From IMG/VR virus record IMGVR_UViG_3300025575_000276: 63,256 nucleotides of DNA, one strand, 5' to 3'. Position numbers and translations under genes: made by a program. Positions 4,240 to 26,200 of the stretch are shown one piece after another. How positions within the stretch are numbered: the stretch's first letter is position 1; every line of letters begins with the position of its first letter. The notes under the pieces were generated by a model that was given only the letters and a program-made list of their open reading frames with translations, did no database searches and was not told where the DNA came from. The DNA is from a virus. Its lineage: Duplodnaviria; Heunggongvirae; Uroviricota; Caudoviricetes.

Positions 4240-4325
4240 ATCAATTTTTTTTTAATTAATAATAGAGTTGTGATCTATAAATACAAATGCACAATTATGG
4301 TTGTCAAAATAATTTGAAAATATAA

Positions 4326-5186
4326 TTATAAACCTTTCAATTTCTCCTCTAATTCTGCTTTTTTCTCCTCTAATTCTGCTTTTTTCTTTTCATTTATGAT
4401 TTCTGCTTTTACAATAGAATCCTTTTCAGCTTGTGTATTTTTTTTTAAAGAATAAAAGACATCTCGTCCAACAAGGAAATAATTGGGTTTATTATTTCCC
4501 ATCGTCAAGATATTTAACGTACCTAAATAAGAAACTAATTTTTCAGAGGGATATTTAAGTAATAATTCCTTATTAAAACGCAAAAAAAGTTCAGTTCCAA
4601 TACCCGTTTTATCTGAATATAAGGGTGATTTTTGAATTGGACCTTCCAAGTATATTTTAATATTCGCAATTGACCCATCAATTGCAGGAGATATTTCATA
4701 TGTCCCAATTGCTCTACTTAATTCTATACCATTATTGGTTAGTACGCGAAAAGTGAAGAGAGTATCATTAAAATTAAAAACTATTATCGATTCTTGGTTT
4801 GTTGCCGTATAGAAAGCATTTGACATTAGAATTTCTTTTGTCTGAGCTATTAATTTGTCTTCCAAAGGGTTGGGTGGTTCTGCTTCATCAACAACCTCCT
4901 CTGGTTTATTACTTATTTCATTGTAAATCTTTTTATATAAGGCGCCAAATTTGAGTCCTCCTCCATCTAGGGGATACTTTTTCTGAAATTCATCAATAAG
5001 TGTTTTTAATTCTGTGCCAAGTTTTTCGGATTCAGGTAAAAGTGATTTATCTCCTGATTCAATTTTCTTTTGGATTTGAACTGCTTTCAAAGTTAGTTCT
5101 GCAAGCTCTCTTGCATCTTTTTGCATTTCGTTTTCCCCACAGCTCATAAGGATGAGAACAATAGCAAATAATAAAAAGTTTTTCAT
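4326..5186 (-). CDS. Predicted lipoprotein of unknown function
   Basis: Lipoprotein signal MKNFLLFAIVLILMS-C followed by charged residues. Coiled-coil C-terminus. Confidence 0.7.
   Translation of the reverse strand: MKNFLLFAIVLILMSCGENEMQKDARELAELTLKAVQIQKKIESGDKSLLPESEKLGTELKTLIDEFQKKYPLDGGGLKFGALYKKIYNEISNKPEEVVDEAEPPNPLEDKLIAQTKEILMSNAFYTATNQESIIVFNFNDTLFTFRVLTNNGIELSRAIGTYEISPAIDGSIANIKIYLEGPIQKSPLYSDKTGIGTELFLRFNKELLLKYPSEKLVSYLGTLNILTMGNNKPNYFLVGRDVFYSLKKNTQAEKDSIVKAEIINEKKKAELEEKKAELEEKLKGL
4341..4382. repeat. Perfect 21-bp tandem duplication (KKAELEE x2)
   Basis: TTTCTCCTCTAATTCTGCTTT occurs at 4341-4361 and 4362-4382. Confidence 0.9.
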
Positions 5187-7245: not shown

Positions 7246-7427
7246 GTGTGCTAAGAGAGAGTGTGTTTGTACTGAATTAATGATAGGGAGGCCGTAACTG
7301 GTTTCCGGGAGCAGGCTATAAATACCACAAAACAAATTAATGACTACTTATAACAGAAGCCATATCTCTGCAAATGTTCACCACATGTTCAAAGAGGCTT
7401 GGGTTGAAATGCCTTTGCCTACTCGAC
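7246..7427 (+). mobile_element. Internally deleted (about 182 nt) group II intron remnant retaining both ends
   Basis: Starts GTGTG (GUGYG). Continues ...GTGTTTGTACTGAATTAATGATAGGGAGGCCGTAAC..., resembling a domain I start. Ends AGAGGCTTGGGTTGAAATGCCTTTGCCTACTCGAC, a DVI stem AGAGGC/GCCT-A-CT with bulged A at -7 and AY end. No RT ORF. Confidence 0.6.
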
Positions 7428-7467
7428 CCCCACCTTAAGGGGCAGAACAGCAAAAAAGTTTATTAGT

Positions 7468-7606: not shown

Positions 7607-10600
7607 TTATTTGGATTGTTCGGTTACGTACCGTTGAATATCGGTACCCATTTTGAAAGGTCCTAAGAAGGAAGATACTGCCCTCCATCCTTTACTATCA
7701 GCATCCCCATCATCTTTCCATAGTTGGTGTAACCCACTATAAGTATTCCTAGCTACTGATAGCATAGGAAAAGGTGATGCAGTCAATTTGTACATGGACT
7801 GTGCTTGTGCTATCAGGTACGACTCATCGAGAGATCCTGACAACATCATAAATGCCATCGTCTTGTTATCTCCCGGCTTGTTAAACATCGAGGCAACAAT
7901 AGCAGAAAGTCCTCCGATAATGGCAAGAGAGTACGCAGTCTGCATGACAGCTCCCCTCTGATCTGGGTGAAGGTTTTTCCAGTATTCCGCAAACCCTTCC
8001 ATATCTTTGTCTTTTACACAATCATGGAGTTGCATACCCATATCTTTAAGGGTATACCACATACCTTCAAAGTAACCATCCTCATTATGGTAGGTTACTG
8101 TATGGGAAGTTCCGTCCTCATGCATTACTTCCTTTGTTCGTTGTTGGGAGTAATGAGGATTGATCTGTCCTCTTGTAAGCCACTTGTCGAGTTTAGAAGC
8201 TAACCAACCGTTCATCGATCCAAAGGTTCTTCCGATAGCCCACTGTTTATACAGAGCTTGGTCAACCTTATCCATGGAGAAGAATAACATGTTGGCCTTA
8301 TGCTTTAGTTCCATCGATTCTTCCATTGTATAAGGAACTTTCATCGTACCATTTTCACGTAGGAGTCCTTGCTTGGCCATAATTTCTTTTGTCTCAGTAA
8401 GTCGTTTTTTACCATCCGGACCATCAAACCTAGTATCTAAATTCTCATCATACTCCCAAGTATCTCCAACTTTTTTATAAGCTTTAATAGTACCGTCCAT
8501 TTCCATTCTGGCACCAACCATAACAGCCCTATGGAAGTAGTCACCTGCTGTATGGGCGATACTACCAAACTGAGTAAAGTGTCTTGTACCAATCTTAAAA
8601 CGACCATCACCGGATAGTTTTTCTACGTCCTGATCAGCAAGGTTCATATTTGACATGATATCGTGATATAAGGCACCATCACTTCCTTTAGCTGAGGAGA
8701 TCAACTGAAATGCTCTTACGTAAGATTTACCGTAGGCTTTTAAACCGGCAGCATCTCCCCTTCCGTATGCCTTTGCAAGTTCCTCTCCAAAAGTCATAAA
8801 ATGTCCTGCAATCATATTCTTTATTGCGGAACTAAGTCTAAATGATACCATTGAAGATGCAGCCCAACCACCAGCAACAACAAGTGTCTTTTCAAGTGTA
8901 GGATCTCCGACCTGGTGTTCGTCAAACAGGGATCCCTTTACAGCAACATCAAGGTACTTTAAAGTGTTCTTGTAATCATTCCGGTTGTTGTAAGTTTGAC
9001 CACTGGCAATCAAGACTTGGCGTACAGCATGGTACAAAGGAATTAACTTTCTGTTCTCTTCAACCTTAATACTGTTTGCAGTAAGGGTGTCGAGTACACG
9101 TTCTAGGTTAGTCTCAACATAGGACTTTTCAGTAGGGTCAATTACCCATTCACTCTGTTCATTGCGAACAAGTCCCATTCGTTTGTACCTAGTCTCTATA
9201 CTTTTAGACGCCTTTCCTTTTAACTTGAAGAAGTCCGGGATATCCCTACTGTTATGTGTTAGTGCCTCGAAACTTGACTCATAGTTCTGGTACTGACTTA
9301 ACCAACGATCCTTAGCAGCTCCAAGTTTACTCCAGAAACTTTCTCCAGTACCTGTGTCATGGGTCAACTTATATTTCATATTGTTCATACTGGATTTAAG
9401 TAAGGGTATCCACCCTTCTTCCCAATAGTCTTCGAAATGAGTTGCCTGTTCAGGTGTTGCATTTCTCAAGAGGTTCTTTTTTACTTCTGCATTGAATGTC
9501 TCAATGAATTCCTTTTGAACGGAATCAAGGGCATTATATTCAGTAGATCCTTTTGGCCAGAACCTTCCGACAAACCTTTTCTCTGTCTTTTCACTACCAA
9601 GAATTTTAAAATCCCTTTTCTCAAGTAATGGTTCGAACTTAGTAGTTGTATCTCCTAGAGTGTAATTCCTAATTGTGTTCCCGATATTATCCAGTCCATA
9701 AACCTTTGTGAATATCGCTTCCTTCTTTGATAGGTACGAGTTTTTAAACTCGTTCTCAACCATTCTGGAGGCTATCTTCATCCTTTGGATATACTGGTCA
9801 ACAATACCAACTCCTGTCATACCAGCAAGGGAGGCATAAGTTTCTCTTAGTCCACCAATGTCCTGAGCATTCTCAGTATCGTTACGGATGCCATGGTAGT
9901 GTGCAATAGCATTTGCCAGTAACTTATACTCGTAGGTATTCATATACGCCTCTGACTTAACGTCCTCTCCCATAAGTCTTCTCTGAAGAACGTTAAGAAG
10001 TTTTATAACATCATCTCTTTTAGTATCATCTGCAACTAACTTATCCGCCAAATCTCGAACTTGTTTTGGAGACATTGCATCAATATTACCGAATACTTTC
10101 CTGACAAACCCTTCTCCCATGAACGATACAAATTTAGGGTTAACGTCTGTAACATCAACCTTAGGCCTACCTTCTCTTAAAGCTGAACCATGTTCAATCT
10201 CTACACCTGTTTGGTGAGCATTTGCCAAATAGGAGATCAGGAAGGACACTTCATTCTGGTGGTAGTCCTCAGGAATTAGTAGATCGTCTTTGGCCAGAAG
10301 ATCTTTGAACTCCTGAGGGAAGTCTTTTATTGCTGAACCGCCCTCTGTCTTCAGAGACCTTAGAACTTTCAGGTGTTTGAAAATATTGGATAGGCTGTCG
10401 GAAACATACGGATTGTGCGTTTCATAGTTTGTATGGGAGCCAACGATAACATTGCTTATCTTGATGTCTGGAAAGGCCTCCTTTAGTTTCATTGCCATGA
10501 TCCCCATTTTCATAAACCTATCGTTACGATTAGTCCTATCGTACAAACGAATAGTCTGAACACCTTCCTTTACAATGGCATTTTTTACCGTATGTAGTGG

Positions 10601-12268
10601 AACAGAATTACCAAATATGTTTTTGAGTTCTCTGGTGTTAACAGACTTGTCGATAACATCTTCTTTCACTGACTCTCCATCTACAACACTATAAAGTACA
10701 ACACTAGCGAAAGACTTATCATTTGGATCATAATCCCTGAAAACAATTACAGCATCACTACCAAAGTTTTCAAATCCCTTCAAAGTGTTGGCAGCTACTG
10801 CAAAATCAGTTTCATTTAAACCAGATGTGAGTTTATCAAGTTGGAGTTTTCTTTGGGAAGTTTTATCACTCCCAGTATAATCTTTTCGTGATGTCTTGAT
10901 GAAGGAGGATTGACCAAAATTAATGTACTGTGCAAAGTCCTGACCGACATTATCAGACCCGGTGTCTGGAATAAGATCGTAGTATTTTTCAAGTTCTTTT
11001 AAACGTGCAGCATCACCTACTTTTGTTGTGTCCTTTAATGCAACCTGATCTTTAAACCTTACACTTAATCCTGCAATATCATTGTAATGGTGTAGACCAT
11101 TGAAATTTCTTACATAGGTTCTGTTTGCCCTTGCCTTTGAGGAGTTGTCAATAGTTGTACCTAATCCGGTTAGTCTTCCAAGGGAACTAATGTTTAGTGA
11201 TCCCTTAACTTCGATACCACCAACAACATCAGCAACACTTTTATCAAGTGGTATATTTGTACCCACCCATGCTTTGTGTACTGTTGAGAGATTACCAAAA
11301 AAATTAGCATCGTCAATGTCGTATATTACTGGTTTCGATAGGTCACTGATCGTTTTAATTTCTTTACCTGTGCTGTCTCTAAGAGGTTTTCCATCAGCAC
11401 CTAATCTCTTAGTAACATCTCCTTCAAAATCCAACTTAACAAAAAACAGGTGACTCTTATCTACGGTTAGGGAAGGCATATCAAGGTTGGGATCTCCCCT
11501 TCTTAGGAACTCCCTATATATGGTCTGTTGTAAATTGTTACTTCGAGACTTGCTGCTTTCAACTGTACCTTTATCAGCCTCAGCATACTCATGGAGTGAG
11601 AACTTATGGTCATAGGTGTTGATTATTCCATCAGGAGTAACCACAACAATATCCAACGTACCTCCGATACCGTGTGGTGCATTGATGTCTTTAAAAGTCA
11701 TTGGTAAGGTAGATGCTGTCCTGATCTCACTCAACACAACATTTTCCCTCCTATTAGTACCAGGTAGTTTAGGATTGAGTGTTGTTTCGTACAAATCTTC
11801 AAGGTATGTTAGCCATTTTGAAGCCGGTACTTCTAACTCAGATTTGTGAACATCGTCAATATACTTGTAGTCGTTCTTCTTCAGGTCTATGCCTTGTAAA
11901 GGGTGTTTACCTTCATTCATGTTTTTCAACAGAAGGTCAGCCATCCAGTGAAAGTAACTACCTGCATCCCTAGTAGGGTTCTCAGCAGACTCGTCCCCGG
12001 CAGGACCTTTCCATGGGTACATTGCACTTACGATAGTTGAAGTTGGAACAAGTATCTCCTTTTCGCCCTTTACAGTTCGTGAGTATTCATGTAGTCCCTC
12101 GTCAAAATTGATTGCTGCATGGTTCTTGAGAAGAGCAGCGACTATCTCTTTTTGATCGGCAAGAGTCTTACCGCTAAACCTTACACCCAGAGAGTTCCCC
12201 AGAATGTAATCGTCCAAGTCCTTTTCGGACTTGAACGTTAAACCTTTGTAATTAAATACACATCCCAT
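7607..12268 (-). CDS. Giant virion-associated (ejected) protein with an N-terminal PD-(D/E)xK nuclease-like domain
   Basis: HGIGGTLDIVVVTPDGIINTYDHKFS motif (about 11601-11675). Third gene of the giant-gene triad typical of crAss-like phages. Helical, partly hydrophobic C-terminus. Confidence 0.65.
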   Translation of the reverse strand: MGCVFNYKGLTFKSEKDLDDYILGNSLGVRFSGKTLADQKEIVAALLKNHAAINFDEGLHEYSRTVKGEKEILVPTSTIVSAMYPWKGPAGDESAENPTRDAGSYFHWMADLLLKNMNEGKHPLQGIDLKKNDYKYIDDVHKSELEVPASKWLTYLEDLYETTLNPKLPGTNRRENVVLSEIRTASTLPMTFKDINAPHGIGGTLDIVVVTPDGIINTYDHKFSLHEYAEADKGTVESSKSRSNNLQQTIYREFLRRGDPNLDMPSLTVDKSHLFFVKLDFEGDVTKRLGADGKPLRDSTGKEIKTISDLSKPVIYDIDDANFFGNLSTVHKAWVGTNIPLDKSVADVVGGIEVKGSLNISSLGRLTGLGTTIDNSSKARANRTYVRNFNGLHHYNDIAGLSVRFKDQVALKDTTKVGDAARLKELEKYYDLIPDTGSDNVGQDFAQYINFGQSSFIKTSRKDYTGSDKTSQRKLQLDKLTSGLNETDFAVAANTLKGFENFGSDAVIVFRDYDPNDKSFASVVLYSVVDGESVKEDVIDKSVNTRELKNIFGNSVPLHTVKNAIVKEGVQTIRLYDRTNRNDRFMKMGIMAMKLKEAFPDIKISNVIVGSHTNYETHNPYVSDSLSNIFKHLKVLRSLKTEGGSAIKDFPQEFKDLLAKDDLLIPEDYHQNEVSFLISYLANAHQTGVEIEHGSALREGRPKVDVTDVNPKFVSFMGEGFVRKVFGNIDAMSPKQVRDLADKLVADDTKRDDVIKLLNVLQRRLMGEDVKSEAYMNTYEYKLLANAIAHYHGIRNDTENAQDIGGLRETYASLAGMTGVGIVDQYIQRMKIASRMVENEFKNSYLSKKEAIFTKVYGLDNIGNTIRNYTLGDTTTKFEPLLEKRDFKILGSEKTEKRFVGRFWPKGSTEYNALDSVQKEFIETFNAEVKKNLLRNATPEQATHFEDYWEEGWIPLLKSSMNNMKYKLTHDTGTGESFWSKLGAAKDRWLSQYQNYESSFEALTHNSRDIPDFFKLKGKASKSIETRYKRMGLVRNEQSEWVIDPTEKSYVETNLERVLDTLTANSIKVEENRKLIPLYHAVRQVLIASGQTYNNRNDYKNTLKYLDVAVKGSLFDEHQVGDPTLEKTLVVAGGWAASSMVSFRLSSAIKNMIAGHFMTFGEELAKAYGRGDAAGLKAYGKSYVRAFQLISSAKGSDGALYHDIMSNMNLADQDVEKLSGDGRFKIGTRHFTQFGSIAHTAGDYFHRAVMVGARMEMDGTIKAYKKVGDTWEYDENLDTRFDGPDGKKRLTETKEIMAKQGLLRENGTMKVPYTMEESMELKHKANMLFFSMDKVDQALYKQWAIGRTFGSMNGWLASKLDKWLTRGQINPHYSQQRTKEVMHEDGTSHTVTYHNEDGYFEGMWYTLKDMGMQLHDCVKDKDMEGFAEYWKNLHPDQRGAVMQTAYSLAIIGGLSAIVASMFNKPGDNKTMAFMMLSGSLDESYLIAQAQSMYKLTASPFPMLSVARNTYSGLHQLWKDDGDADSKGWRAVSSFLGPFKMGTDIQRYVTEQSK

Positions 12269-12269
12269 A

Positions 12270-15200
12270 TTAACACTTTTTTTCTAAAGTTTTACTTTTA
12301 TACATTCTATCTTTAATGCTCTGGAGTTTTTCATTCAGATACCCAGTACCATAAAGGTCACTAAGGTCTTCCCTATTGGCTGAAGTAAGGTTGTCGAAAT
12401 AGCCTGAGAGTTTGCCACCGTCAATCATTTCCTTTGCAAGTTTAGCTACTGACATCTCAGCAGTTGCACCAGGAGAAAGTAACGATAATTTCTCAGAAAT
12501 CCAATTCAAATATGCATTTTGATTGCCTAACATGTCAAATGTTCCATCAGAGGATTCTCCAACCCATTCTGCAAATGCTTCTTCACCGACTATCTCAGGA
12601 GAGTACTCTGGGTGTTCTGCTTGGATCCGTTTACCTTGTTCAGTCTTGGCCCATGTATCTACTATCCTAGAGTAAAGTTCTGGTTTAGCCGGTTTTATTG
12701 CATTCAACCATACGTGAGATAACTCGTGCATTGGAGTATCTATGGTATTAAGACCGGAGTTGATATAAATAATACCGTCATGTGCAAATCCTTTCTTATC
12801 CAATAAGGATAGTGGAAGGTCTCCATTCAGGATATCCTCATTAGTAATGATGCGAACCTTTACACCGAAGGTGTCTCCTGCAAGCCTAGAGAAGTTTCCA
12901 AGCATCTTACTATTTAAAGTGGATGTCTGACCTACTCGGTTAGTGATCACATGATCAGAAGCATCTGAGACACTTTTAACCAGTGTATACTTTGGTTTAT
13001 TGATATCTGCTTCCTTAGGGAAATACCTACTCGATAGGATGGTTACTTTACCATTTGTCCCGGATATGGCCTTATGGAGTCGAACATTTCGACTCTCTAC
13101 ATCAGGATCTGAAAAGATACTGTCTTCGTGAATGTACAGGTTATCATGTTTTCCTTTAAGTGTGTCAGGAGTTACCGCATATCCGAAGTTGTAATCAGTT
13201 CCAAGTGTACTGAACTTACTGTAGAATGCCTCCATGTTTTGAGCAAGTTCCTTCTCAACTCTAGGAATACCTTTTAACGACTCAAAGTATTTCTTAGCTT
13301 GATCCAGATCCTTAGCATTGATCTCCAAACTATCTGCATCAGCAAGGAAGACTGTCTTTGATTTACCTGAAGAATCCTTGGTCTCTAAAGTAGTTCCAGA
13401 AAGATCTATCTCCTTTTTTAGTGGGGAGATTATAGTCTTAGTGGATTTACGAGCACTTGTCACATGGAAATCTTCTCCGTTTGCATCGGTAAGTACCTCA
13501 CCTTTATGGATAGTGTCCAAATCATTACCGAACATTTTCTTACGAACTTGCTCATTAATAGTATTGGCCTCTTCCTGAGTACCGGCAACTATCTTTGAAG
13601 TTTTTGGATCACCGGAAGTAAACTCATCAACAATATTCGTTTTGTTACTGAACTCTACTCCCTGTCCATTTCCATCAATACTGGACACTCTACTGATAGG
13701 ATCTTCGGAGAACTCATTACTCTCAATACTATCTAAAAGTGATGCTATAGGACTGGATTTAGGCTCTATGTGGTGTTCTACGATAGGTTTCTCTACAGGA
13801 GTTTCCTCTCCATCGAAGTTGGTTTGAGGTACTGGTTTTGTAGATACATCGGGAACCGAAAGAACACTGTCTAAGTTCCCAGTATGACCAAAGACTGTTG
13901 CATATATCTTACCTACTGTCTCAGTAAAGTCATTCCAAACAGATTTTCCAGATCCCTCATAGGGAGAAGGAGTTTCCTTTATGGACTCCTGGTATTTTTT
14001 ATCCGTGAGGGCATCTGATAGGAAGGTCTGAGCAGGAGTGTGTTCTACGGCACTAGCCAGTTCCTCAATATTACTTTTGAACTCCTCGTTGATTTTAAAC
14101 TCAGATTGGGTTGTAGCAGAAGTCAACTCATGGATGAATGCATTCTCTATGTCAAGGGTTGGGGTATTTCCCATAACAAAGAAAGTGTTTGACTCAGGAT
14201 CATACTTACTAACCCACTCATTTTGTATGCCGTGGTCAGAGTTATACTGTCTCATAAAAGGTGAGTCCACCACTTTAACCTGAGACGACTGGATTGTACT
14301 GTCCGCATTATCAAGTATTTTCTCGGCCAGTGATTTATTCTCAGGAGATACTCCAACTTCAGAATACTTCTCGATAAAATTTGAAGTGCCTGTAACTATA
14401 TCGTCTGCAAAGTAAGTGTCTTTAAATCCTTGGTTAAAAGGAGCTAAAGGACTTTCATAAGTACCACTATCAACTCCCTGACGACCTTCTGGAGCCTGTA
14501 CGAAACTACCATAACCCGGCATTGCAATAGGTGTTTTCCCATCAACGTCATAACCAGTTGCTGTGTGTCCTGCTGTGAAGATTTTCAAAGGCTTATCAAC
14601 AGACGAGAATACAGGTTTTGGAAGTGAGTTTATCGTTTCCTTCTTAGCATTAGCAACGGCCTCTTTAGATCTTTTTAGTAGGAACTCATTAAATCCATTT
14701 TCAGTTTTAGCCGGGGCAGGATTGATAACAACCTCACCTTTGGCCCAACGTGGATCAGAGTAGATCGAATTGTCAAAGGTTCCAGTTTTAAACGACTGAT
14801 AGGCATGTTCTACAGAGTAAAATAACTTGTTGTTCTTATCTATGAACTTGTTGACTTCAGCATTTTCAGGAGATAACGTTCTACCTGTTTCATCTTCTGT
14901 AGTTACCTTTTTAGGAACTTCAGGTGTAACTTCTTTGGGTTTCACAACTTCAAATTCAACAGCATACTCAAGACCCGGACTAAGTTTACCGAAACCATTT
15001 GCGGACCAACCTTCTTTATGCCAGTTAGCCTCAAACCTTGGATCAGATTTATCATAGACAGCAGTTACCCTTGTGAGGATAGACTTAGTAGTTCCATTAA
15101 CACTCTTACCAAACTGGTGAATGTAGGTACCAGGTTTAAGATCGTAACGATCCTCACCGTCCTCTCCCTCGATTTTACCATACTTGGCTATTTCCTTACC

Positions 15201-18200
15201 ACTTCTAGTTGTACGTGTTCTGAAGCCGGCCTCAATCATGTCAATAGAGAAGGCATTCTTACCTAACTTACTGGCAGCAACTTCAGAATTAACACTTTGG
15301 GTTTTTCCCCATTTATTTGCAGTATCGCCTTGAAGGTTCTGAGGAATGTTGTTTTCTCTAATCCGAGAGTTAGCTTGGTTCATACCTTCCTCATAGTTAA
15401 GAGGTGAGAGTTTAACCTCACTGGGCTGTTCATTGATCTTTGTTCCCGGACTTTTCCACACACCTAAGATTTGACCATCGTAAGGTTGCTCACTGTAGAC
15501 ATAACCATTCTTTTTTAGATACGCTGAAAGTTCTACCTCGCCTGTATTGTATGGGTTTGATTTAAGGTACCGTTCACTATCCTTAACAATAGTTGCCCCA
15601 GCATCCATAGCTTTGTTCAACTCAGTCTTTGTTTGGGTTATGTTGGAGTTCCATTCCTTCAAAGATTTGGCCCCATTCCTTTTACCATTGGCAGATAAGA
15701 ACACAACATCATCTTTGGTATACTTCCCAGAGTTAACAATGCTAGCTGCTTCGGATGATATTTCACCTGTATCAGTATTAGTGTGTTTAAGGTATATCTG
15801 ATCACCATACAATTTAGTGGAGCTACCTTCATTTCCAAATCCGATATACTTGTTCGACAGTTCAGCTTTAGTAATAGCTTTTTTATCCACAGCCTTATCA
15901 GGAGTTACGGAGAACACACCCTGCTTTTTAAGTAGGGTTTCTCTACCATATTTAATATCCTGTTTTTTATCAGGCGAATTTACAAGACTAGCTCTCCTAA
16001 ATCTGGGTTGTTCATCTCCATCCATAAGGTGACTATTGTCTGAATTATCGTCAAGATTTTGAGCAGTCTTTGAATAGTTGAGTTGTAGTTCACCTTTGTC
16101 CGTTATTGTAAAAGGCATAATAGTGGCTAGGTCATTCGTATTGCTGACCTTTTTATATACAGTTGTTTTTTCCCCGGTCTCATCGTAGTCAGTTCCTTTC
16201 TCGTAATACTCAGATTTTTTAGTGTCCTTGTTATACAGTTTTACCTTATCTGGAGTAGTATAGTCAGTAGCTTTTGGAAGTGATTTAACTTCTTCATACT
16301 CTTGGAGAGAAAGGTCAGATACCATACCCGACAGTACTCCCATGTCTAAAACTATAGTATTTGTTGCTTGACTATTTTTAAACAATCTGTTCGGACTAAC
16401 ACTGCTTAGGAAGTCATTGAAATCTTGATGGAGGTTAGTATTCATCAGGTCATAGAATGATCCAGAGACGTTATTAAACGAACTCATAAGTAATGAGTAA
16501 TTGAAGAGTACCTTTTGGTCCTTTACATCAATGTTCTTCAAACCAGTTTTGAGCATCATAATAACCTCATCAGAAGTATTCCTAGTATCCATGGTTCGAT
16601 AGACTGTAAAATCCTTACCAGTGAGGGTATCCCTTGAGTTAGATGCAACTAGTTTTTCAACAAAGAAGTTCTCTGGGTACTTCTCTCTAAGTTTGGTTAC
16701 AAACCCTCTGAAATGATCCAAGAACTGAAGGGAGTTTCCATACTCATTAGTACTCTTTGTTGCATTAAACTTGTATGTTCTAACTGCATTGGGATCATTA
16801 TCATCGTACTGAACATCCACAGGGCGGTTTCTGAAGTAAAGTATTTTAAGGTACTTTTCAGCAGTACGCCTAGCTCTAAGGAATAGGTTCTCATCATTTA
16901 ACTTGTCCTTGTCAAACTTGTCCATAATTAAATGGGTCAGTGCAACAGTACTTGAGAGTTCAGAAATCATGTCCTTACCTTTTTGGTAGTACTTCATGTT
17001 TGAGTGATAATGCTCATTGTCTGAGAATACTCTAAGGGGGTTTACGATAATTCTAATTCTATCGTATGCATCAATCATCTTGTCCCTATAAGTAGGGTTG
17101 TTTAGGAAGGTTGTAAAGTTAAAGTCCCTAAGAGTTTTTACAGCAGATCCATTAGTCCTATTCTCAGAACGATCCTTCGCACCTTTAATAAAGTCCTCGA
17201 TTTTACGACTATAACTATACACATCCTCACCTTTATTGGGGAATTTTGTGTTTACACTTAAGGATTTACCAACGAACTGAAACTCCTTTGCCATTCGGGA
17301 CACCTTAATAATGTCTTCATAACCTTTGGTTTTATTGTAGACAATATCGCCAAGAATTTGTTTCAAAGACACCCCTTCAGATTTTGCCCTTTCCTGCAAC
17401 TCAATCATCTTGGGTTGAGTAATAAAAGCAACAGCTCTTTCAATAGGACAACCTACAGCCACTAAAGCATTGAGGAAGTTTCCTGTATCAAGATCGGCAT
17501 TCAACCTACCAAGATAGAGAAGTTTAGCATTATCAGTAGCAGCGTTAATAAGACCGGAATATTCTGACCATGCCTGTCTTTTGATTGCCCCATCTTTTCT
17601 TGCATTTATTAGAGCCTTCTTTACCTCTAAGACTTCCTCAGGATGCATCTGGCTAAGTATGTCTATATTAGACAAGTTAGCTATTTTGCTAAAGACAATT
17701 CCATCTTTGCCGTCTTTACCCCCAGGAATATTAACCTCGAAGGGTTTAAAGGAGTTCTTTATAATTGTTCCTCCCTCCTTCATTACCTGTTTCATTGCAG
17801 AGTAGTAGATAGCAAAATAAGCCTTTTCAGCAGTAGCTTCCACACCTACCATTTGCTTACCTCTCTGATTGATAACCGCCATAATGATAGTTGATAATGG
17901 GTTACTTGGACTAAAGAACATCTCGTTCTTCTCTCCCTTAACAATATTCCCCAAACTATCTGTATTTACGATTGATCCCTTCTCCAGTGCAACTTTTGGA
18001 GCAATGCCTGTCCTATAAAGAGTGTCTACAATGAAGTTCCTAACTCCTGACTCATACCATTCAGCATTTTTACCTTTGAAACTATCCTCAAAACTCTGGA
18101 ATTCTTCAGGGTAAAGTTGTTTGAACTGTGCTTTCGAAAGTACATTTCCAGTGCTGTCTACTTTATAAGGGTACGACATACCAGTATGGTTTAGGTTGTT

Positions 18201-21200
18201 AGGACTGTTGGCAAATTCCTTTATAAGAACGTTACCTTTGTCTATATCGAAGTCTTCTCCCTTTATAATGAGTGACTCGAAAGGAACTCCAATTGAGTTA
18301 CCATAACCATCCATAAACCCAACAACACGGAAACTGTTATCAGATTGTTTCCCTGATCCGGGGATACGTGCTACAATACCGTGAAGGGATTCTTCAAACC
18401 CTTTACGTAGGGGCATTGCCATAGTCTCTGCATCGGCATCCGATAGATTACTGTCTAGTGCCTGTAACCTATCTTGGAAAAAGTAAGGGTCATTAAGGAT
18501 AGTATCAACCTGATCTCCGGGTTGTAATTTGAAGGTTTCCTTCATCCACATTGGAAGAATTACTTCTCCCGGTGTTCCGGTCCATTCAGGTGAGTCCAAC
18601 TTAGTGTACAAGGACGTTCTTGCAACCTTCATCATTTCCTTTGAAACATTTTTCATACCGGCTGCCATAGACATTGCACTTTCAGGAAATAGTGCATTAA
18701 ATTGTTCCAGTACTAGTTTCAGATCGTCAGCAGTTCCATTTCCACTTTTCCAGTTATAGAGTGTTTCGAGAAATTTCCATTCAGGAGTATCTGTAGAAGT
18801 AGTTCCATCGGAATGAGTGTACTTATTGTACTTCAAGTTTCTTGCAGGAGTATCTTTAATGTGGTCTACATTTTCCCCTTCTGAAATACGTTCATTCAGG
18901 TAATCTTTGAACTGAGGTCGCATAATAACTCGATTTACACCAGTATGGTCAACGAACTCATGTACCATTATAAGGTCAGATATCGGGGTAATTACAAACT
19001 GTCCACCGTTGAACTTATGCTTAACAGCAATTTTTTCAAGGGTTGACATTGTTTGTGACTGGAGTATTCTGAGTATCTGGGGATCGTCAAAACTGTATTT
19101 TCCACTGCGGATCTTATCCACAACAAATGATGTAGCAAGTTCTTCATTAGTGTCTGCATACTTAGTAAGGATAGCTTTTGCAAATCTAGCGTTATCCCCT
19201 TTATGTTGAACCATTTCATTAGCAAACTTATGATCAGATAGTTGTGCAATAGCTCTGTATAAAGCCATGGTCTCGCCCATAGTTCTACCTTCTGCCGGAA
19301 CTGCATTAAGTGCCTGTGATATGAGGGACACACCACCTTCAACTTTATCTGGGTCATGGTAAGCATTAAGCTGTATTCCCATGTTCTCATTACTCGATTC
19401 AATGTGGTTTAGTTGTTTACCACTATGAAGAAAGTCTACAATGTTACCATTGTTGTTACTCTGCCCGGTCTTAACGGAAGTCATAATTCCGATCCTTCCT
19501 ACAAAGGCAGTTGCAATAGGATGGTGTGTAGCTCTAATGTCTACAAGTTCTTCAAACACTGTAGGGTTACTAAGGCCACCCAAGTCTTTATAAATCTCCA
19601 GATAGTTGTTGTACACTTTACTTGAGTCAAGTGTAATACCTTTTCTTGAAGTATAGTTAATACGAGTTTCAGGAGGGAATTGTACCATCATGGACATCTC
19701 CACCATCTTATTAGCATCGAACCTTCCATTACCTTCAGAGTACCGCATTACTTCAGGAGTAAGTTCATACTCGGCTTTCTTCTCAAATCTGACAAGTCCT
19801 CTTCTAAGGTCCCTGTCTGTTTGGATATTCTTGACAATTGAAGAATTAAACTCAGAGTATGCACCCCCAAAAGAATTAGACATCAAAAGTCTTTCCATTG
19901 GAGTAATAAACATGGCACCATCATATACTTCTTGATCCTGTTTTTTAAACAGCGAAAGTACATTGGTAGCTAGCTTAGTATCTGAGAAATATGCTACCCT
20001 TGAGAAAGAACCTAATAGGTTGTTATAACTCTCAGAAGTATCTACAGGAGTTCCTTGAGCATTTAGCCGGGTTAGGATTGGTTGATAATAAGAACTTGTC
20101 TGTAACTTGCTTCTCTTTATTCTGTCCACATAACTATCGTTCATCATGGCATTTAAAGGAGTGTAGTTTGAACTCTCTTGTACATCCGTACTCTTAGGAG
20201 CTTTGTACTGGAATATATTCCCCTGCATGATGTGCATCATGTCGTTGGCGATAGTGTTGTAATGCCAGAAGTAACCTTCAAACAGAGGGTTGTACTCGAT
20301 ATCATTACCGTTTTTTAGGACTACATCTCCGGATTTCCATTTTTCACCAAACCTTGTGGCCATAGCCTCGTTAACCAAGTTTGAACCAATATCCTTTGAA
20401 TTAAACCTTATGTTAGCGCCTTTAGTTTCAGACTCTTTAAGTCCTATAGTATCTCTGGAAGTAAGGTTCGAAATGAATCGTTTTAACTGATCATCCATAA
20501 AAGCATCCAATTTAGGATACGCACCTGTAATATCAGGAGTGTGGATCTCGACCATTTTAGCAAAGTCTCCACGGATACCAATTATTTTGGATTTGACCTT
20601 ACCCTCGGTGATCTCTTTAACAACATAGTCATGGTTCTCAACAAGTTTTCCATCTCTACCATCAAGGTTTGATATAACCTCTTGTGGGATCTTTGCTGTC
20701 TCGACATACTTCTTAAGATCAGTTAAGGTCTTTACGTTCTCAATACCATTGAAGTTTATCTCAGGGTACTTACTTCTGATATTGTTAATTACACTTTTCC
20801 ACTCATTAACTACACTCTGTCCTACCTTTTGGTAATACCTCCCTACGGAGTTATTATAGTCCTTCTTTAAAGAGGCATTGTCTAATTTCCCATTTAGTAC
20901 TGGAAGAAAATCTACTGTCCCTGCCCCTTTGGTTATCTCCGGTATAGCAACAGAACTACCATCGGAGAAGGTTGCAATATTAAGGTGAGCAGCTTTAAAT
21001 CCGGTGTTCACTGCATGGGTTCCAAACAAACCGTAGATATCAAAGATGGCATTGTCTAAGTATGTAAGACTCTTGTGGGATACCGCTTTTTCATCGGTAG
21101 ATTTCTTGAACCCATCCTTTATTCCCCAAGTAGTTATTTTATAAAGTCCTCTTTTAAAGATACTTTCAGAATGCACGGAGTCCGGAGTATTCATAATATC

Positions 21201-23273
21201 GAAAACCTTACCAGTAAATTTGTGGATAGGCATCGTTAACCCATAAGATGCTACAGTATTTCCATCAGCATTTGTGTTCTTAGAAACACTATAGATATCA
21301 CTTACATTGTCAATCTCATCTGCTAAGAAATCGAAATCATAGTGCATTACCTTTGAAGGGTATAGGAAGTTCTTCTTAGTCTCATCGGAGACAGGGTTCC
21401 ACTCTGCCAGTTTGGATCTGACATCATTGGTAATCCCCATTGCATGACGAATAGCAGTTCCTCTTGTAACATCTTTGTCGAACACCGCTTTATTGTAGAT
21501 GTTCAGTCCTACCAGATTAACTAGAATGTCGTTAAGCTTTTGAATTCCAGTTCGGTTTAGAGTTCCGTCTGTATTCTTTATTATTCTGGAGACCGTCTCT
21601 GACGACAATACGACACCATGTCTGGCTAATAAATTACTGTAGTCATTAGAGTCTAAAGCCGGGATCTCTGAAGATGCTTTATCATCCCCAATCAGCCTAT
21701 CAGCCTTTAGAAATGTTGAAAGTGTACTGTCCGGAGCAACCTTCGACACTTCAAATGAAACCTGAGCACTTCCACCACCCCTCTTGACAAACCCTATAGT
21801 CAGTAAGTCTGGAGTACCTTTGAATGCATTTTTCGGAGTTAGGAACCCACCTGAAATCTGTTTGCGAGTGTCCTCACTATTAAGGGTATCTACAATGTTA
21901 TTGGAGTTTCCCTTTAACAATTCTCTAGTTGCAGATCCTCCCTGAGTTAGTTTAAGTTCTCCATCTTCAAAAGAGAAAAGATCGTATTTGGAAGTTTGAG
22001 CAATATTACCTGCAAAATTTACCAACATAGAATTAATGCTTTTCTTTTTGGACAACTCAGACCTGTTGGCAATGGAAGTAAGTGAATGGAAATCTCTTAA
22101 CCCACCTTCTGCATGAACAGTGATAGGGGCATCAGAAAAGAATTTATGGTAAATAGACCAAGCCACACCACCTTCAGGTTTAGAACTGTTGGCAGTAGCG
22201 TAGTTATAGATAGCACCTTTGATATCTTCAATATACGGTGTATATAGTGTTCTACTGTCTTTGTTACCACTAACCATAATAGAAGTATTGATGTTTGATA
22301 TCATCTTCTTCATGGCATTTTGAGTAAGGAACTTACCAGGTACTTCTCTGAACACACCTTCTGAAACCCTTTCAAGTACCGGAGTGGCTATAAGGTGTAG
22401 CTTAGTTAAACCGGCAATTGTAGCAAGGGCAACCCCTACCCCATCGTTATCCTCCCAACCTTCTCTTGATTCAGTATCAGTTTTGTAGAAGTATTCACCA
22501 GTAGATTTGTTAAAGTCGATTGCCTCTCCAATGTGTATCTTAATAAGAGTCGGAAGGAACTTATCGATCATAGAAGTAAGGTAGACATCCTTAAGGTGGG
22601 AGTCGTCCTTATATCCTTTTGCCAGTGCTTCAGGAGCTGTCTGGTTGATCGTATCAACATAACTGGAGTTGGCTTCAAGTTTATCTTTAAGTTCTTGCTT
22701 AAAGGCTTGTATGCGCTCATTTAAAACCTTACTGGTATCGGAGTAAAATTCTCCTTTGTACGCATTGGCGATAGCAGCATTGTAGAACTCACGTTTGAAC
22801 TTCTGCCCAAGTTGTAAGTAATACTGGCTGGTGAACTCCATGTGGTTTACAAGGTCTCCCGGAGTCAATGCCCAAGTCTTGATCACTTTTTTAAACTCTT
22901 CAATAGGATCCCCTAAATCTGAATTTGGATCTTGTTGAATTGGTTGGTCCGGGGCAAATGCTTTCTGTTCGGCTACAGGGTCTACTGTAAGTCCTTTCTG
23001 AACACGTTTAGTGTAAGCATCTACGTAACTTTGGAGACTAACCGGGTCAATCACTTTACCTCCATTCATCTCTCGATAAACAGTACTTATGGCATTCTTA
23101 ACAAACTTCAACCCTAGGTTAGGATCGGTTAAACCAGTATCGTCATTTGAGACAATACTGGTAAGTGTGTTGTAAATTTTATCCGCTAACTCATCTGGGG
23201 AGGACTTCAATTCGTCCTCCCTTACTTCAGTTATTACCGGAAGTCTGTGTGTTTTTTCAAGGTTACAACCCAT
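12270..23273 (-). CDS. Virion RNA polymerase (crAss-like, phi14:2 gp66 type) with C-terminal accessory domains
   Basis: ARIPGSGKQS...VVGF...KGEDFDIDK; catalytic DFDID at 18240-18254 (aa 1674-1678). Zincin HELSH at 12714-12728 followed by EEAFAE. Confidence 0.88.
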   Translation of the reverse strand: MGCNLEKTHRLPVITEVREDELKSSPDELADKIYNTLTSIVSNDDTGLTDPNLGLKFVKNAISTVYREMNGGKVIDPVSLQSYVDAYTKRVQKGLTVDPVAEQKAFAPDQPIQQDPNSDLGDPIEEFKKVIKTWALTPGDLVNHMEFTSQYYLQLGQKFKREFYNAAIANAYKGEFYSDTSKVLNERIQAFKQELKDKLEANSSYVDTINQTAPEALAKGYKDDSHLKDVYLTSMIDKFLPTLIKIHIGEAIDFNKSTGEYFYKTDTESREGWEDNDGVGVALATIAGLTKLHLIATPVLERVSEGVFREVPGKFLTQNAMKKMISNINTSIMVSGNKDSRTLYTPYIEDIKGAIYNYATANSSKPEGGVAWSIYHKFFSDAPITVHAEGGLRDFHSLTSIANRSELSKKKSINSMLVNFAGNIAQTSKYDLFSFEDGELKLTQGGSATRELLKGNSNNIVDTLNSEDTRKQISGGFLTPKNAFKGTPDLLTIGFVKRGGGSAQVSFEVSKVAPDSTLSTFLKADRLIGDDKASSEIPALDSNDYSNLLARHGVVLSSETVSRIIKNTDGTLNRTGIQKLNDILVNLVGLNIYNKAVFDKDVTRGTAIRHAMGITNDVRSKLAEWNPVSDETKKNFLYPSKVMHYDFDFLADEIDNVSDIYSVSKNTNADGNTVASYGLTMPIHKFTGKVFDIMNTPDSVHSESIFKRGLYKITTWGIKDGFKKSTDEKAVSHKSLTYLDNAIFDIYGLFGTHAVNTGFKAAHLNIATFSDGSSVAIPEITKGAGTVDFLPVLNGKLDNASLKKDYNNSVGRYYQKVGQSVVNEWKSVINNIRSKYPEINFNGIENVKTLTDLKKYVETAKIPQEVISNLDGRDGKLVENHDYVVKEITEGKVKSKIIGIRGDFAKMVEIHTPDITGAYPKLDAFMDDQLKRFISNLTSRDTIGLKESETKGANIRFNSKDIGSNLVNEAMATRFGEKWKSGDVVLKNGNDIEYNPLFEGYFWHYNTIANDMMHIMQGNIFQYKAPKSTDVQESSNYTPLNAMMNDSYVDRIKRSKLQTSSYYQPILTRLNAQGTPVDTSESYNNLLGSFSRVAYFSDTKLATNVLSLFKKQDQEVYDGAMFITPMERLLMSNSFGGAYSEFNSSIVKNIQTDRDLRRGLVRFEKKAEYELTPEVMRYSEGNGRFDANKMVEMSMMVQFPPETRINYTSRKGITLDSSKVYNNYLEIYKDLGGLSNPTVFEELVDIRATHHPIATAFVGRIGIMTSVKTGQSNNNGNIVDFLHSGKQLNHIESSNENMGIQLNAYHDPDKVEGGVSLISQALNAVPAEGRTMGETMALYRAIAQLSDHKFANEMVQHKGDNARFAKAILTKYADTNEELATSFVVDKIRSGKYSFDDPQILRILQSQTMSTLEKIAVKHKFNGGQFVITPISDLIMVHEFVDHTGVNRVIMRPQFKDYLNERISEGENVDHIKDTPARNLKYNKYTHSDGTTSTDTPEWKFLETLYNWKSGNGTADDLKLVLEQFNALFPESAMSMAAGMKNVSKEMMKVARTSLYTKLDSPEWTGTPGEVILPMWMKETFKLQPGDQVDTILNDPYFFQDRLQALDSNLSDADAETMAMPLRKGFEESLHGIVARIPGSGKQSDNSFRVVGFMDGYGNSIGVPFESLIIKGEDFDIDKGNVLIKEFANSPNNLNHTGMSYPYKVDSTGNVLSKAQFKQLYPEEFQSFEDSFKGKNAEWYESGVRNFIVDTLYRTGIAPKVALEKGSIVNTDSLGNIVKGEKNEMFFSPSNPLSTIIMAVINQRGKQMVGVEATAEKAYFAIYYSAMKQVMKEGGTIIKNSFKPFEVNIPGGKDGKDGIVFSKIANLSNIDILSQMHPEEVLEVKKALINARKDGAIKRQAWSEYSGLINAATDNAKLLYLGRLNADLDTGNFLNALVAVGCPIERAVAFITQPKMIELQERAKSEGVSLKQILGDIVYNKTKGYEDIIKVSRMAKEFQFVGKSLSVNTKFPNKGEDVYSYSRKIEDFIKGAKDRSENRTNGSAVKTLRDFNFTTFLNNPTYRDKMIDAYDRIRIIVNPLRVFSDNEHYHSNMKYYQKGKDMISELSSTVALTHLIMDKFDKDKLNDENLFLRARRTAEKYLKILYFRNRPVDVQYDDNDPNAVRTYKFNATKSTNEYGNSLQFLDHFRGFVTKLREKYPENFFVEKLVASNSRDTLTGKDFTVYRTMDTRNTSDEVIMMLKTGLKNIDVKDQKVLFNYSLLMSSFNNVSGSFYDLMNTNLHQDFNDFLSSVSPNRLFKNSQATNTIVLDMGVLSGMVSDLSLQEYEEVKSLPKATDYTTPDKVKLYNKDTKKSEYYEKGTDYDETGEKTTVYKKVSNTNDLATIMPFTITDKGELQLNYSKTAQNLDDNSDNSHLMDGDEQPRFRRASLVNSPDKKQDIKYGRETLLKKQGVFSVTPDKAVDKKAITKAELSNKYIGFGNEGSSTKLYGDQIYLKHTNTDTGEISSEAASIVNSGKYTKDDVVFLSANGKRNGAKSLKEWNSNITQTKTELNKAMDAGATIVKDSERYLKSNPYNTGEVELSAYLKKNGYVYSEQPYDGQILGVWKSPGTKINEQPSEVKLSPLNYEEGMNQANSRIRENNIPQNLQGDTANKWGKTQSVNSEVAASKLGKNAFSIDMIEAGFRTRTTRSGKEIAKYGKIEGEDGEDRYDLKPGTYIHQFGKSVNGTTKSILTRVTAVYDKSDPRFEANWHKEGWSANGFGKLSPGLEYAVEFEVVKPKEVTPEVPKKVTTEDETGRTLSPENAEVNKFIDKNNKLFYSVEHAYQSFKTGTFDNSIYSDPRWAKGEVVINPAPAKTENGFNEFLLKRSKEAVANAKKETINSLPKPVFSSVDKPLKIFTAGHTATGYDVDGKTPIAMPGYGSFVQAPEGRQGVDSGTYESPLAPFNQGFKDTYFADDIVTGTSNFIEKYSEVGVSPENKSLAEKILDNADSTIQSSQVKVVDSPFMRQYNSDHGIQNEWVSKYDPESNTFFVMGNTPTLDIENAFIHELTSATTQSEFKINEEFKSNIEELASAVEHTPAQTFLSDALTDKKYQESIKETPSPYEGSGKSVWNDFTETVGKIYATVFGHTGNLDSVLSVPDVSTKPVPQTNFDGEETPVEKPIVEHHIEPKSSPIASLLDSIESNEFSEDPISRVSSIDGNGQGVEFSNKTNIVDEFTSGDPKTSKIVAGTQEEANTINEQVRKKMFGNDLDTIHKGEVLTDANGEDFHVTSARKSTKTIISPLKKEIDLSGTTLETKDSSGKSKTVFLADADSLEINAKDLDQAKKYFESLKGIPRVEKELAQNMEAFYSKFSTLGTDYNFGYAVTPDTLKGKHDNLYIHEDSIFSDPDVESRNVRLHKAISGTNGKVTILSSRYFPKEADINKPKYTLVKSVSDASDHVITNRVGQTSTLNSKMLGNFSRLAGDTFGVKVRIITNEDILNGDLPLSLLDKKGFAHDGIIYINSGLNTIDTPMHELSHVWLNAIKPAKPELYSRIVDTWAKTEQGKRIQAEHPEYSPEIVGEEAFAEWVGESSDGTFDMLGNQNAYLNWISEKLSLLSPGATAEMSVAKLAKEMIDGGKLSGYFDNLTSANREDLSDLYGTGYLNEKLQSIKDRMYKSKTLEKKC

Positions 23274-23294: not shown

Positions 23295-26200
23295 TTAACA
23301 AACTTTAAGTGAGATAAGCATTTTTGTGACAAGTTTAGCTATATCAGGATGATCCCCTGTTGCTTCGGCTATGTCGCTCATTAAGTTCTTAACAGTACTT
23401 ATATCCCCAACTTTGGTAGCTTCTACAAGTTGTTGATGTAATTTACTTATTTCACTATTTGGAGAAAGGTCTAGTCCAGTTATTTTTGGAAGAATGTTTC
23501 CAATATTAGTTGTTGCTTCATGTAGCACAGTTCCGGCATCTTTAACAGGATTCCTTTGAGCAGTTCTCCATACTTTATCGGCCTTAAGTATATCTGCTGT
23601 AAGTGTTGCCACTAAATCATCATCCCCAAGGATTACAGCCTGTGCTTTTAATTCTTTAAGATCATCAACATGCTGTTTGATAAGTTCAGGTAACATTCCT
23701 TTCAAAGTTACCTTTCTTGCACTATCTGCTGCAAGTTCTATGTTTTGAGAAGTCTTAGGTTGTGGAACACCTTCTCCCGGTGTCTGAGGGATAATTTGCA
23801 TTGGGTCTGGTTTAGTTTTTAATCCGGTAACGTCACTTAGGAATTCAGGACTGAATTTAATAACAGGAGCTGAAAGTTTTCCATAGTTAGTAGTTAACAA
23901 AGATAGTGAACTTTCACTTTCCTTTGTAGCCATAAGTCCTTTATGTGCAGATAAAGTTTCAATCCTGTCCCTATCGACATTGCCCATAATTCCTTTTGGA
24001 AAACTCTTCGTTTTCTTTAGTTCGGAATCAAACTTTTCAAGAATTGCAGTGTCAGTGTTTTTCAATAAACTTAGAAACCCATCACCACCAGTTCTCCAAT
24101 CAACTGCCCCATCAGTCTTAAGTTTAGCATCCATATTACCTTGGGTAATTTTCACTTCTCTCATTTGCCTACCAAGACCCTTATCATATATCTTGAACTT
24201 AGTAAGTAGATCACTCAGGAATGCCTTATAGGGGACATCTGTTGCATTGTTGTACATTTCACGAACAGTCAATAGAAACTGACGTTTAGTATTTGGAGAC
24301 ATTACTTCAGTGGATTTTACACCTTCTAATACAGGTATCATCTCTTTAATATCAGTTAACCCTCTTGACACATTGTCTAGTGGAATTCTACCAATACCGT
24401 TGCTTTTTAAGAAAGCCTCATTGATATGTGTTCCTGTTTTGAACTCACTGTGTAGCATATCGATATTACTCTTATTGTAAGAATAGAATACTACTGGTAT
24501 AGCACTTCCAGATGTACTTGTGTCAAGGAACAACTTGGAGAAGTGCATAGGAGGAAGTAATTCTGGGTTTACCTCTGGTTTGTCAGAATGTTTATTCATC
24601 AATTCCTTGATAGTAATACGTCCATTTTTCTTCTTCATAATGTTAGGATTGCCGGCACCTACCACAACATCCTTACCACCTTCTCTAGCATTGAGAAACT
24701 TACTGGTGATGTCAATTCCTCCAGACTTACTGACCACATCCATAAATCCTTTTATCCTAGTTGTGTCTACAGGAAAAGTAGCAAGTATAATATCGTAAGT
24801 GGTACCATTTGACCGTTTACCTGTAGTTGTGAGGTAGAGAGTGTCGTGGTTAAGTAAATTAGGATAGTCAATTTTAGCCTTTCCTGTAGAGTGTTCCATC
24901 CTAAGGATGTTACCCGACTTAAGGAATATCTTAGATCCTTGGGTCTCATAGTCTCTGATCTTAGCAAGTACCTTAGCCTTAACTTCATGTGTTGCAAAAA
25001 AATCATCCACATTCTTAGTCTTCACCATATTAGGTACAACCCAAGTATATGTTGGTATCATTGCATCTGAAGAGTCCTTCAGATTTCTCTGATTGTCGTC
25101 CTCGACATCTTCAGGAACTCCCTCGACTTTATCATTAGGATCTGTAGTATCTGCTTCAGGAGCTTTACCTTTCCCGGCTAGTTTTTTATTTCTGAGTGCT
25201 TCAAGATCATGTAATTTTTGTTCAGCCTGAAGTTTGATAAATTCATTGGTAGAAGTCCCTTTGAATGCATCTAACTTGCTCACACCTATTTTAGCAACCT
25301 GTATTTTTGGAATGTCCTTTAGTTTAGGTTTACCTGAAGAACTGGCAGTTGTCTCCTTTGAGTTGTAATTGTTGTAAGCATCTTCAAATAATTTTGAAAC
25401 ACCGGCATACTCACTGTCATTCGCTTTGAAAAGTTCGTCAATGGCATCTCGCAGGTAAGTTGAGTCAACTACAGTTCCCATAGTTTTAGGATCACTTATA
25501 GCCTTAGCAATAAACCTGTAAACATCATTAGGAGTTTTAACCTTCTCATCAGTTATGTTCACACGAACATCGTCTATTAACTTGGGATCAGGAGGATATA
25601 AAGACAACGTGGCTCGAACAAGTTCATTCTCAAGTGTCTCTTTAATGAATTTACTTTTTGCCTCGTCAATATTACCATTTGAGGTAAAGTTGTCAAGCGC
25701 ATCCAGTACCTTATCGGTAGAGATAGAAAGGGTGTTCCTTGTGTCTTTTCCGGTTGTATCGTATCTAAATGTAAGCCCTTTACTCTTACTGCCTTTAACC
25801 GAACTAACAGGAAGGTTCTTGAGTAGTTCCCGGATATTTGATACATTTTCTTTTCCAAATATTCTTTCAAGTTCACCTACAAATTGATCTGTAGTGGTTT
25901 TACCAGAGATCAAACCATCCAATGAAGTGCTTAGAGATGTCCTTATCTCTTCAAGTCCTTTGATACCTGAACTTACAGGGTTTAGTTTAATTAAAGGAAC
26001 TTTGGTTTTAACAACCACATCAACAGTTTCCTCACCCTCTGATGGTTTGAATTCATCAGGGATATCGTCAATAGACATTAACTCGATCTCCGGAGCTACG
26101 TCATACCAATCTTGGAGTTCTTGTTCAATGTATTCCAGTGTCTCCCCGCTAAGATCGTAGGCAACTCCTTCTAATGGGCCTTCTTCAGAAGACGATAACA

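Follow-up and report, generated by a model that had tools for sequence, protein, structure and literature searches.

The window, a 63,256-nucleotide (nt) stretch of tailed-phage DNA (Caudoviricetes; IMG/VR record IMGVR_UViG_3300025575_000276), carries on its minus strand an open reading frame (ORF) of 3667 amino acids (aa) at 12270-23273, which, judged by its sequence, is a virion RNA polymerase of the crAss type and which ends in a long C-terminal tail (aa 2465-3667, 12270-15881). This tail is a mosaic of six mobile modules, all under purifying selection, and three or four of them lack catalytic parts; the last three (D-E-F) are separable as a protein of their own, and the giant cargo proteins of this locus and its relatives follow a cysteine rule at their ends. 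We consider it reasonably probable that the tail is a polyvalent-type cargo mosaic, consisting mostly of non-catalytic binding modules together with one probable protease. The polymerase and the parts of its tail are as follows.

12270..23273, minus strand: predicted crAss-type virion RNA polymerase gene with a modular C-terminal tail (P0001), from the 3667-aa ORF.
16374..20216, minus strand: conserved core region of the polymerase, aa 1020-2300, the range taken for the orthologue alignment.
18240..18254, minus strand: catalytic DFDID, aa 1674-1678, its three Asp invariant in 19 orthologues.
15438..15881, minus strand: module A, aa 2465-2612, an unnamed alpha/beta domain known from homologues and a model, mobile among crAss-type cargo.
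14931..15371, minus strand: module B, aa 2635-2781, an ASCH-fold domain with ~60 homologues and fold-search support.
14649..14885, minus strand: module C, aa ~2797-2875, a truncated NADAR relic, from homologue matches to PF08719 and alignment.
14448..14462, minus strand: fusion point, aa 2940/2941, where the close relative L006 has ~964 extra nt.
13899..14318, minus strand: module D, aa 2986-3125, a possible inactive zincin, with HELTS at 3048.
13035..13760, minus strand: module E, aa 3172-3413, the C-terminal half of a superfamily 1B (SF1B; Dda/RecD2) helicase, from Foldseek, VIA and alignment.
12534..12911, minus strand: module F, aa 3455-3580, a predicted intact zincin-like metallopeptidase (H3516, E3517, H3520, E3565).

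The polymerase carries the D-x-D-x-D motif with Ile/Val at the fourth place (DFDID, aa 1674), and in a local search of six proteins a 19-orthologue profile matched phi14:2 gp66 (residues 1314-1665, expect value (E) 8e-16; a second stretch, 1132-1239, at E 6e-4) and crAss001 gp50 (E 1.6e-17). In a PDB-wide search with the polymerase core profile gp66 was not among the matches listed, and PDB sequence searches gave nothing for the whole protein or for the profiles of A, B and the core. The gene is flanked by giant genes of 2842 and 1553 aa and lies downstream of a structural block, the major head protein of which matches the crAss-like phrog_11589 (E 5e-24). The crAss-like phages are abundant viruses of Bacteroidota. 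The phi14:2 gp66 protein has been proven to be a virion RNA polymerase that depends on its DFDID aspartates, and its packaging in the virion, injection and transcription of early genes have been demonstrated (10.1101/2020.03.07.982082). For crAss001, packaging has been shown as well. By analogy with gp66 and crAss001, the polymerase of this crAss-like phage is probably packed in the particle and would be injected.

Homology stops near aa 2300. When aa 2470-3667 were searched against 1.8 billion representatives, the 430 matches separated into distinct blocks, and the module order is supported by separate homologue sets, two AlphaFold models and fold searches. The whole 3667-aa protein matches no family in Pfam or PHROGs and the tail pieces have no meaningful match in Pfam, so the module assignments rest on homologues and folds. 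A first-pass annotation, made from the letters alone, had described a tail of about 1200 aa following the polymerase core (DFDID at aa 1674), placed it within 12270-16100, and read in it, in order, an unnamed KYIGFG...AGATIV...YNTGE domain, an ASCH-like domain, a NADAR-like segment, a pseudo-zincin, a degenerate helicase half and an intact zincin. The tail is present and falls inside that range, and modules A, B, C, E and F hold in the order given, leaving the pseudo-zincin, D, as the weakly supported member. The tail is not one continuous polymerase domain, nor is it identical among orthologues: the folds are distinct and the tails vary.

Module A, with the motif KYIGF..SST..N.G.Y..D..F.S..G..GA...D...YN.GE, has ~90 homologues and a confident model (predicted local distance difference test (pLDDT) ~90); its best structural matches reach only Z ~5, it falls in no named fold, and it is unnamed still. 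Its top match in BFVD is a giant protein of a crAss-like phage, within which the matching module was not pinned down. Several identities were tried without gaining support: methyltransferase, HAD-cap, SepF and IF3 gave generic matches at Z 4-5; ADP-ribosyl cyclase came from an Atlas lead of 0.82, below the threshold of the tool; and SLOG/cpYpsA, suggested by the motif order, gave hhalign results against one narrow cpYpsA alignment that were not better than the controls for any permutation, with no SLOG rows among the structure-search matches listed for module A and none found in genome searches for SLOG seeds.

Module B has an ASCH fold by structure search, matching YqfB (9kyf) at a VIA Z of 9.7 (root-mean-square deviation (rmsd) 3.3, 95 aa aligned), with ASCH/PUA-like proteins in all of the top nine VIA rows and a Foldseek match to the ASCH fold at E 2.6e-3. 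With the ASCH family (E. coli YqfB, an N4-acetylcytidine (ac4C) amidohydrolase, and ZmASCH) it shares both the fold and the octapeptide G-x-[K/R]-T-x-T-x-R, here GFRTRTTR, in which the Thr and Arg corresponding to YqfB Thr24 and Arg26 are kept. However, Arg2685 stands at the place of YqfB Lys21 by motif register and this Arg is nearly invariant in 53 module B members, so that the module B family, which sits in phage cargo proteins, has Arg throughout in place of a Lys that is essential in the ASCH hydrolases characterised so far (PMC6972931; 10.64898/2026.02.27.708502). Several ASCH proteins bind DNA or RNA (10.64898/2026.02.27.708502). The polar motifs of A and B are invariant across 50-70 members, a pattern typical of ligand pockets.

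Module C retains the central SVEHAYQS.K, as NADAR (PF08719) has SVEHAYQ..K, but an alignment with NADAR homologues shows that the C-terminal half (SF.QNP..LL.TG..W..FP) is gone from the window protein. There is no direct match of C to PF08719; its homologues match at E 1.8e-7 to 5.5e-6, under the cut-off, and full-length NADAR homologues occur in related cargo proteins. Module D has HELTS without the second His of HExxH, and L006 reads RELTS at this place. It aligns in register but weakly to HExxH segments (E 7e-4 to 0.15 in a local set of 139 segments), its score on our zincin profile is equalled or exceeded by 12 of 100 shuffles, and its model has a pLDDT below 50. A zincin-like domain without HExxH is often present near aa 170-210 of the last cargo protein (several loci, L035-L084), so inactive zincins recur in the cargo block.

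Module E matches T4 Dda at a Foldseek E of 4.8e-11, and aa 3172-3413 superpose on Dda residues 179-439 (VIA Z 16.5, rmsd 4.3, 226 aligned). Unlike Dda/RecD2 helicases, which have an N-terminal ATPase domain and intact motifs V and VI, the window protein contains no Walker A and no match to an N-terminal helicase profile, and motifs V and VI are eroded in an alignment with intact relatives. Among 30 members of module F, some of which were picked for the motif, H3516, E3517 and H3520 are invariant and E3565 has a conservation of at least 90%. Its model has the strand and helix order of the metallopeptidases (MPTases) of Iyer et al. (a three-stranded sheet, the HExxH helix and a Glu on a later helix), single members match Peptidase_M78, M3 and SprT-like families weakly (E 0.002-0.035), and the fold-search lists covering this region are taken up by helicase matches. 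Module F is the one probable protease among the tail modules.

Between the window and L006, the one genome pair compared (synonymous divergence, dS, near 0.6-1.1), the ratio of nonsynonymous to synonymous divergence (dN/dS) was 0.065 for the core, 0.060 for A, 0.069 for B, 0.078 for C, 0.092 for D, 0.057 for E and 0.039 for F, with 0.12-0.30 for linkers. Purifying selection acts on every module as it does on the core. The relics are no exception and are kept, not decaying; the low dN/dS speaks against "decaying junk" for the relics. Since broken domains are under core-level selection, functions read from domain names can mislead.

Tail architectures were compared in 20 orthologues and 80 IMG/VR loci. 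They differ widely, as the first-pass annotation, which took the modules to be separable, would have it: many orthologues have none of the tail modules, and other tails consist of a zincin only, of a helicase half and zincin, of NADAR and helicase (P0021) or of cpYpsA (P0011), with a further type having a whole SF1B helicase and A inside the polymerase (P0005, P0006). In P0006 (L091:10001-21493), and also in P0005, this intact helicase (Walker A GYAGTGKT) and A form a ~900-aa insert before the core, on top of the degenerate half-helicase that the tail carries. In the closest relatives, P0004-P0006, polymerase, helicase half and zincin form one chain without B or C, and a quick version of the tree places the pair of window protein and P0003 next to P0004 as its sister, within a clade that also holds P0005-P0007. 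The fused core is thus probably older, and A-B-C-D were probably gained in the window lineage, either in one block or step by step. Further giant proteins, often with DxDxD, contain A and B too; in such other proteins LPD3 adjoins A (E 3e-28 and 3.5e-11) and ART-PolyVal stands beside A plus B (E 8e-7, just under the cut-off), marking A and B as mobile crAss-type cargo modules tied to the polyvalent network and bearing out the likeness to polyvalent proteins that had been proposed. In a 4550-aa protein, P0028, module B is inserted inside module A (4131-4424).

The relative L006 has a polymerase 89% identical to that of the window, which ends at aa 3177, and the next gene encodes a separate protein of 879 aa, of which aa 152-879 match window aa 2940-3667 at 88%. 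The ~964 nt comprise a Cys-bearing C-terminus with its stop, then 19 nt and a new start that reads M-L-C, and the fusion point shows short in-frame microhomology. Half of the tail is therefore a fused or separable neighbour, a cargo protein with its own gene in a close relative, rather than the polymerase appendage for which D-E-F had been taken. The difference may reflect either a split in L006 or a re-fusion in the window. The two genes of L006 and the microhomology at the join could also mean that two genes are the true state and that the fusion arose in assembly, as an artefact, or through an accidental deletion not long ago. However, the identical 3667-aa protein is found on 9 contigs from three assembly sources (ENA, JGI and Logan), a variant with 98% identity is equally long, and P0004-P0006 are fused as well, which makes this explanation very improbable; a recent re-fusion is possible, an artefact unlikely. 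A second tail indel is present in L006 (18326-18582), where ~80 extra residues lie between the ASCH and NADAR modules. The N-terminus of its 879-aa protein (19554-20010), with F..WFG.SK.VD.NGEP, may resemble the start of ART-PolyVal without the catalytic His; it has no Pfam match.

The ends of the cargo proteins carry cysteines, and the relevant features are these.

23265..23267, minus strand: N-terminal Cys3 of the polymerase, from the sequence, facing the last Cys of the 2842-aa protein.
12270..12340, minus strand: C-terminal helix and terminal Cys3667, from alignments, facing Cys3 of the next cargo gene.
23295..31823, minus strand: upstream 2842-aa cargo protein, the sole Cys of which is its last residue.
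7607..12268, minus strand: downstream 1553-aa cargo protein, which begins M-G-C, has no C-terminal Cys and ends the chain.

In the D-E-F alignment no column other than Cys3667 is invariant. Over 61 non-identical loci, counting Cys within the last eight and first seven residues, 77 of 79 junctions between neighbouring cargo genes have Cys on both sides, a figure that overstates the number of events because the loci are not phylogenetically independent; a Cys end is found in 1 of 47 chain-final genes, and the internal Cys frequency is 0.0005. Most carriers of module A (71 of 91) and of module B (45 of 63) end in a C-terminal Cys, and the N-terminal Cys is absent where the polymerase is fused to the protein upstream of it. 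In phi14:2, the 5398 residues of gp67, gp66 and gp65 include four Cys, each of them at a facing end; crAss001 follows the rule though its gp47 lies on the opposite strand. The window fusion removes just such a facing Cys pair, which L006 has. This pattern in the sequences suggests head-to-tail linkage of the cargo proteins, and gene borders would be fluid if terminal Cys pairs link them. We propose, tentatively and at slightly less than an even chance, that the giant crAss cargo is tied head to tail by terminal Cys pairs, through a disulfide or a metal bridge, into one ejection thread. On this reading a peptide bond and the Cys link could replace each other, junction-spanning cassettes of mobile domains (A, Arg-type ASCH, NADAR, helicase) could insert, split off and fuse freely, and the window and L006 would represent one such event, in which a Cys junction is absent from the tail of the one and present in that of the other. 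A literature search found no published account of a cysteine or disulfide rule for cargo proteins, and the paper on the structure of crAss001 mentions disulfides for the portal-vertex and tail proteins only (PMC10172136).

Some individual loci add to the picture of cargo ends. In crAss001 (L088:8120-26724), gp47 has its sole Cys at 2339 of 2341, gp50 has Cys 5, 1334 and 2404, and gp49 has only Cys 5; the polymerase profile matches gp50, not gp49. The polymerase is split ~270 aa after DxDxD into two ORFs in L030 (3353-13454) and also in L025 and L029, and the C-terminus so created carries a Cys, as does the created N-terminus in L029 and L030, just as at ordinary cargo junctions. In L016, L017, L027 and L028 the polymerase ORF breaks off soon after DxDxD; no Cys marks this break, which an intron may have caused.

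By analogy with phi14:2 gp66 and crAss001, the protein would be packed in the head and ejected, partly unfolded, with the other cargo. Terminal Cys pairs may join the separate cargo proteins. After refolding, B, C and E may act near the polymerase as tethered, mostly non-catalytic binders of nucleic acid or nucleotides, and F may be a protease that processes cargo, or else structural, like the HExxH subdomain of the N4 polymerase. Two other explanations have to be weighed, neither of them fully exclusive of this one. The tail may instead be an active toolkit against host defence or for RNA, with NADAR acting on ADP-ribosylation, ASCH on modified RNA and the zincin on proteins of the host. Relatives do have NADAR and helicase domains in complete form at equivalent places, LPD3, ART-PolyVal and NADAR are found together with A and B, early deployment of such domains has been proposed (Iyer 2017, PMC5512222; PMC9503650), and an arms race fits the rapid turnover of modules. 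However, C is without its C-terminal half, E without the ATPase half, D without the second His and B without the essential Lys, and the low dN/dS does not point to diversifying selection. The toolkit of anti-defence or RNA-handling domains of the first-pass annotation is thus not supported as a set of active enzymes, and, as a relic could act as a decoy or sponge, the broader idea is weakened to an unlikely one.

Somewhat less likely again is that the tail is mainly structural cargo, that is, folded spacers for packaging, for ordered ejection or for autoinhibition of the polymerase, with domain identity of minor importance. The C-terminal domain (CTD) of the N4 virion RNA polymerase (vRNAP) contains a subdomain with HExxH and dampens the polymerase, on which it packs (PMC13434306); in unprocessed form it is needed for encapsidation. 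Our zincin profile weakly matches N4 vRNAP residues 2188-2233 (E 0.37-0.55), and the core-like conservation of the relics fits a folding constraint. Against this stand the many orthologues without any of these modules, the polar motifs that A and B keep invariant, and the existence of D-E-F as a separate protein. The preferred explanation, a mosaic of mostly non-catalytic binders with one protease, has points against it as well: module A, having no named fold, may be an enzyme; the Arg of module B might replace Lys via other chemistry; the identification of D as a zincin relic is weakly supported; the selection estimates come from a single pair and could reflect folding or packing, not binding; and the loci in the junction count are related to one another.

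Further observations concern the surroundings of the cargo block. A tyrosine integrase gene lies near it in the window (1-1455; phrog_1, E 1e-15) and in the P0004 locus (L090:24149-25402), and in L006 a host-like histidine kinase follows the last cargo gene, which together suggests temperate members in the clade. The gene after the polymerase in L092 (19191-23723) has PF12705 (PD-(D/E)xK), and the first 423 aa of the 1553-aa protein of the window have no Pfam match. Reading TGA as Trp (table 4) opens the giant ORFs far better than table 11 in L012-L014, L016, L017, L021-L023, L058 and L061. A 35-nt match (91%) links window 7398-7432 with L006 29494-29528 in opposite relative orientation, ~2.4 kb beyond the end of the collinear block in L006.

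New here is that the polyvalent kind of fusion extends to a polymerase of the putative two-barrel crAss type, joined to ASCH, NADAR and helicase modules. A cargo domain without a name and a family of Arg-type ASCH domains are new as well, though some of these domains may be named in Yutin 2018, and so are the conserved relics and a fused/split pair that drops a Cys junction. At stake are the roles of injected crAss giant proteins beyond transcription; the locus illustrates how such proteins trade domains and fuse or split at Cys-marked ends. The unnamed module A and the Arg-type ASCH, both found mostly in crAss-type cargo, are small, well-folded modules that can be expressed alone, and the fused/split pair of near-identical phages is a natural experiment on the linking and ejection of cargo.

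The cargo block of Crassvirales (phi14:2 gp67-gp66-gp65; crAss001 gp47-gp50-gp49) resembles the locus in DFDID, the profile match, the giant neighbours, a zincin within the block and the terminal Cys pattern, and fusions of cargo genes are known there (10.1101/2020.03.07.982082). In contrast, the 2180-aa gp66 has ~815 aa after DFDID, compared with 1993 here, the zincin of the window lies within the polymerase chain, and profiles of A, B, C and E gave no match in phi14:2 gp65-gp67 or crAss001 gp47, gp49 and gp50. The other close parallel is with polyvalent proteins, for which virion polymerases of N4-like phages fused to MPTases and effectors (ART, lysozyme, PBECR) are the textbook case (PMC5512222). 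The window polymerase is putatively of the two-barrel crAss type, not the T7-like N4 type, ASCH and NADAR are not mentioned in the main text of that paper, module A is unnamed, and several modules are relics. Like polyvalent proteins, however, the window protein is giant, joins a polymerase with a zincin MPTase and a variable string of domains, carries several unrelated domains on one polypeptide, and varies in architecture among its relatives.

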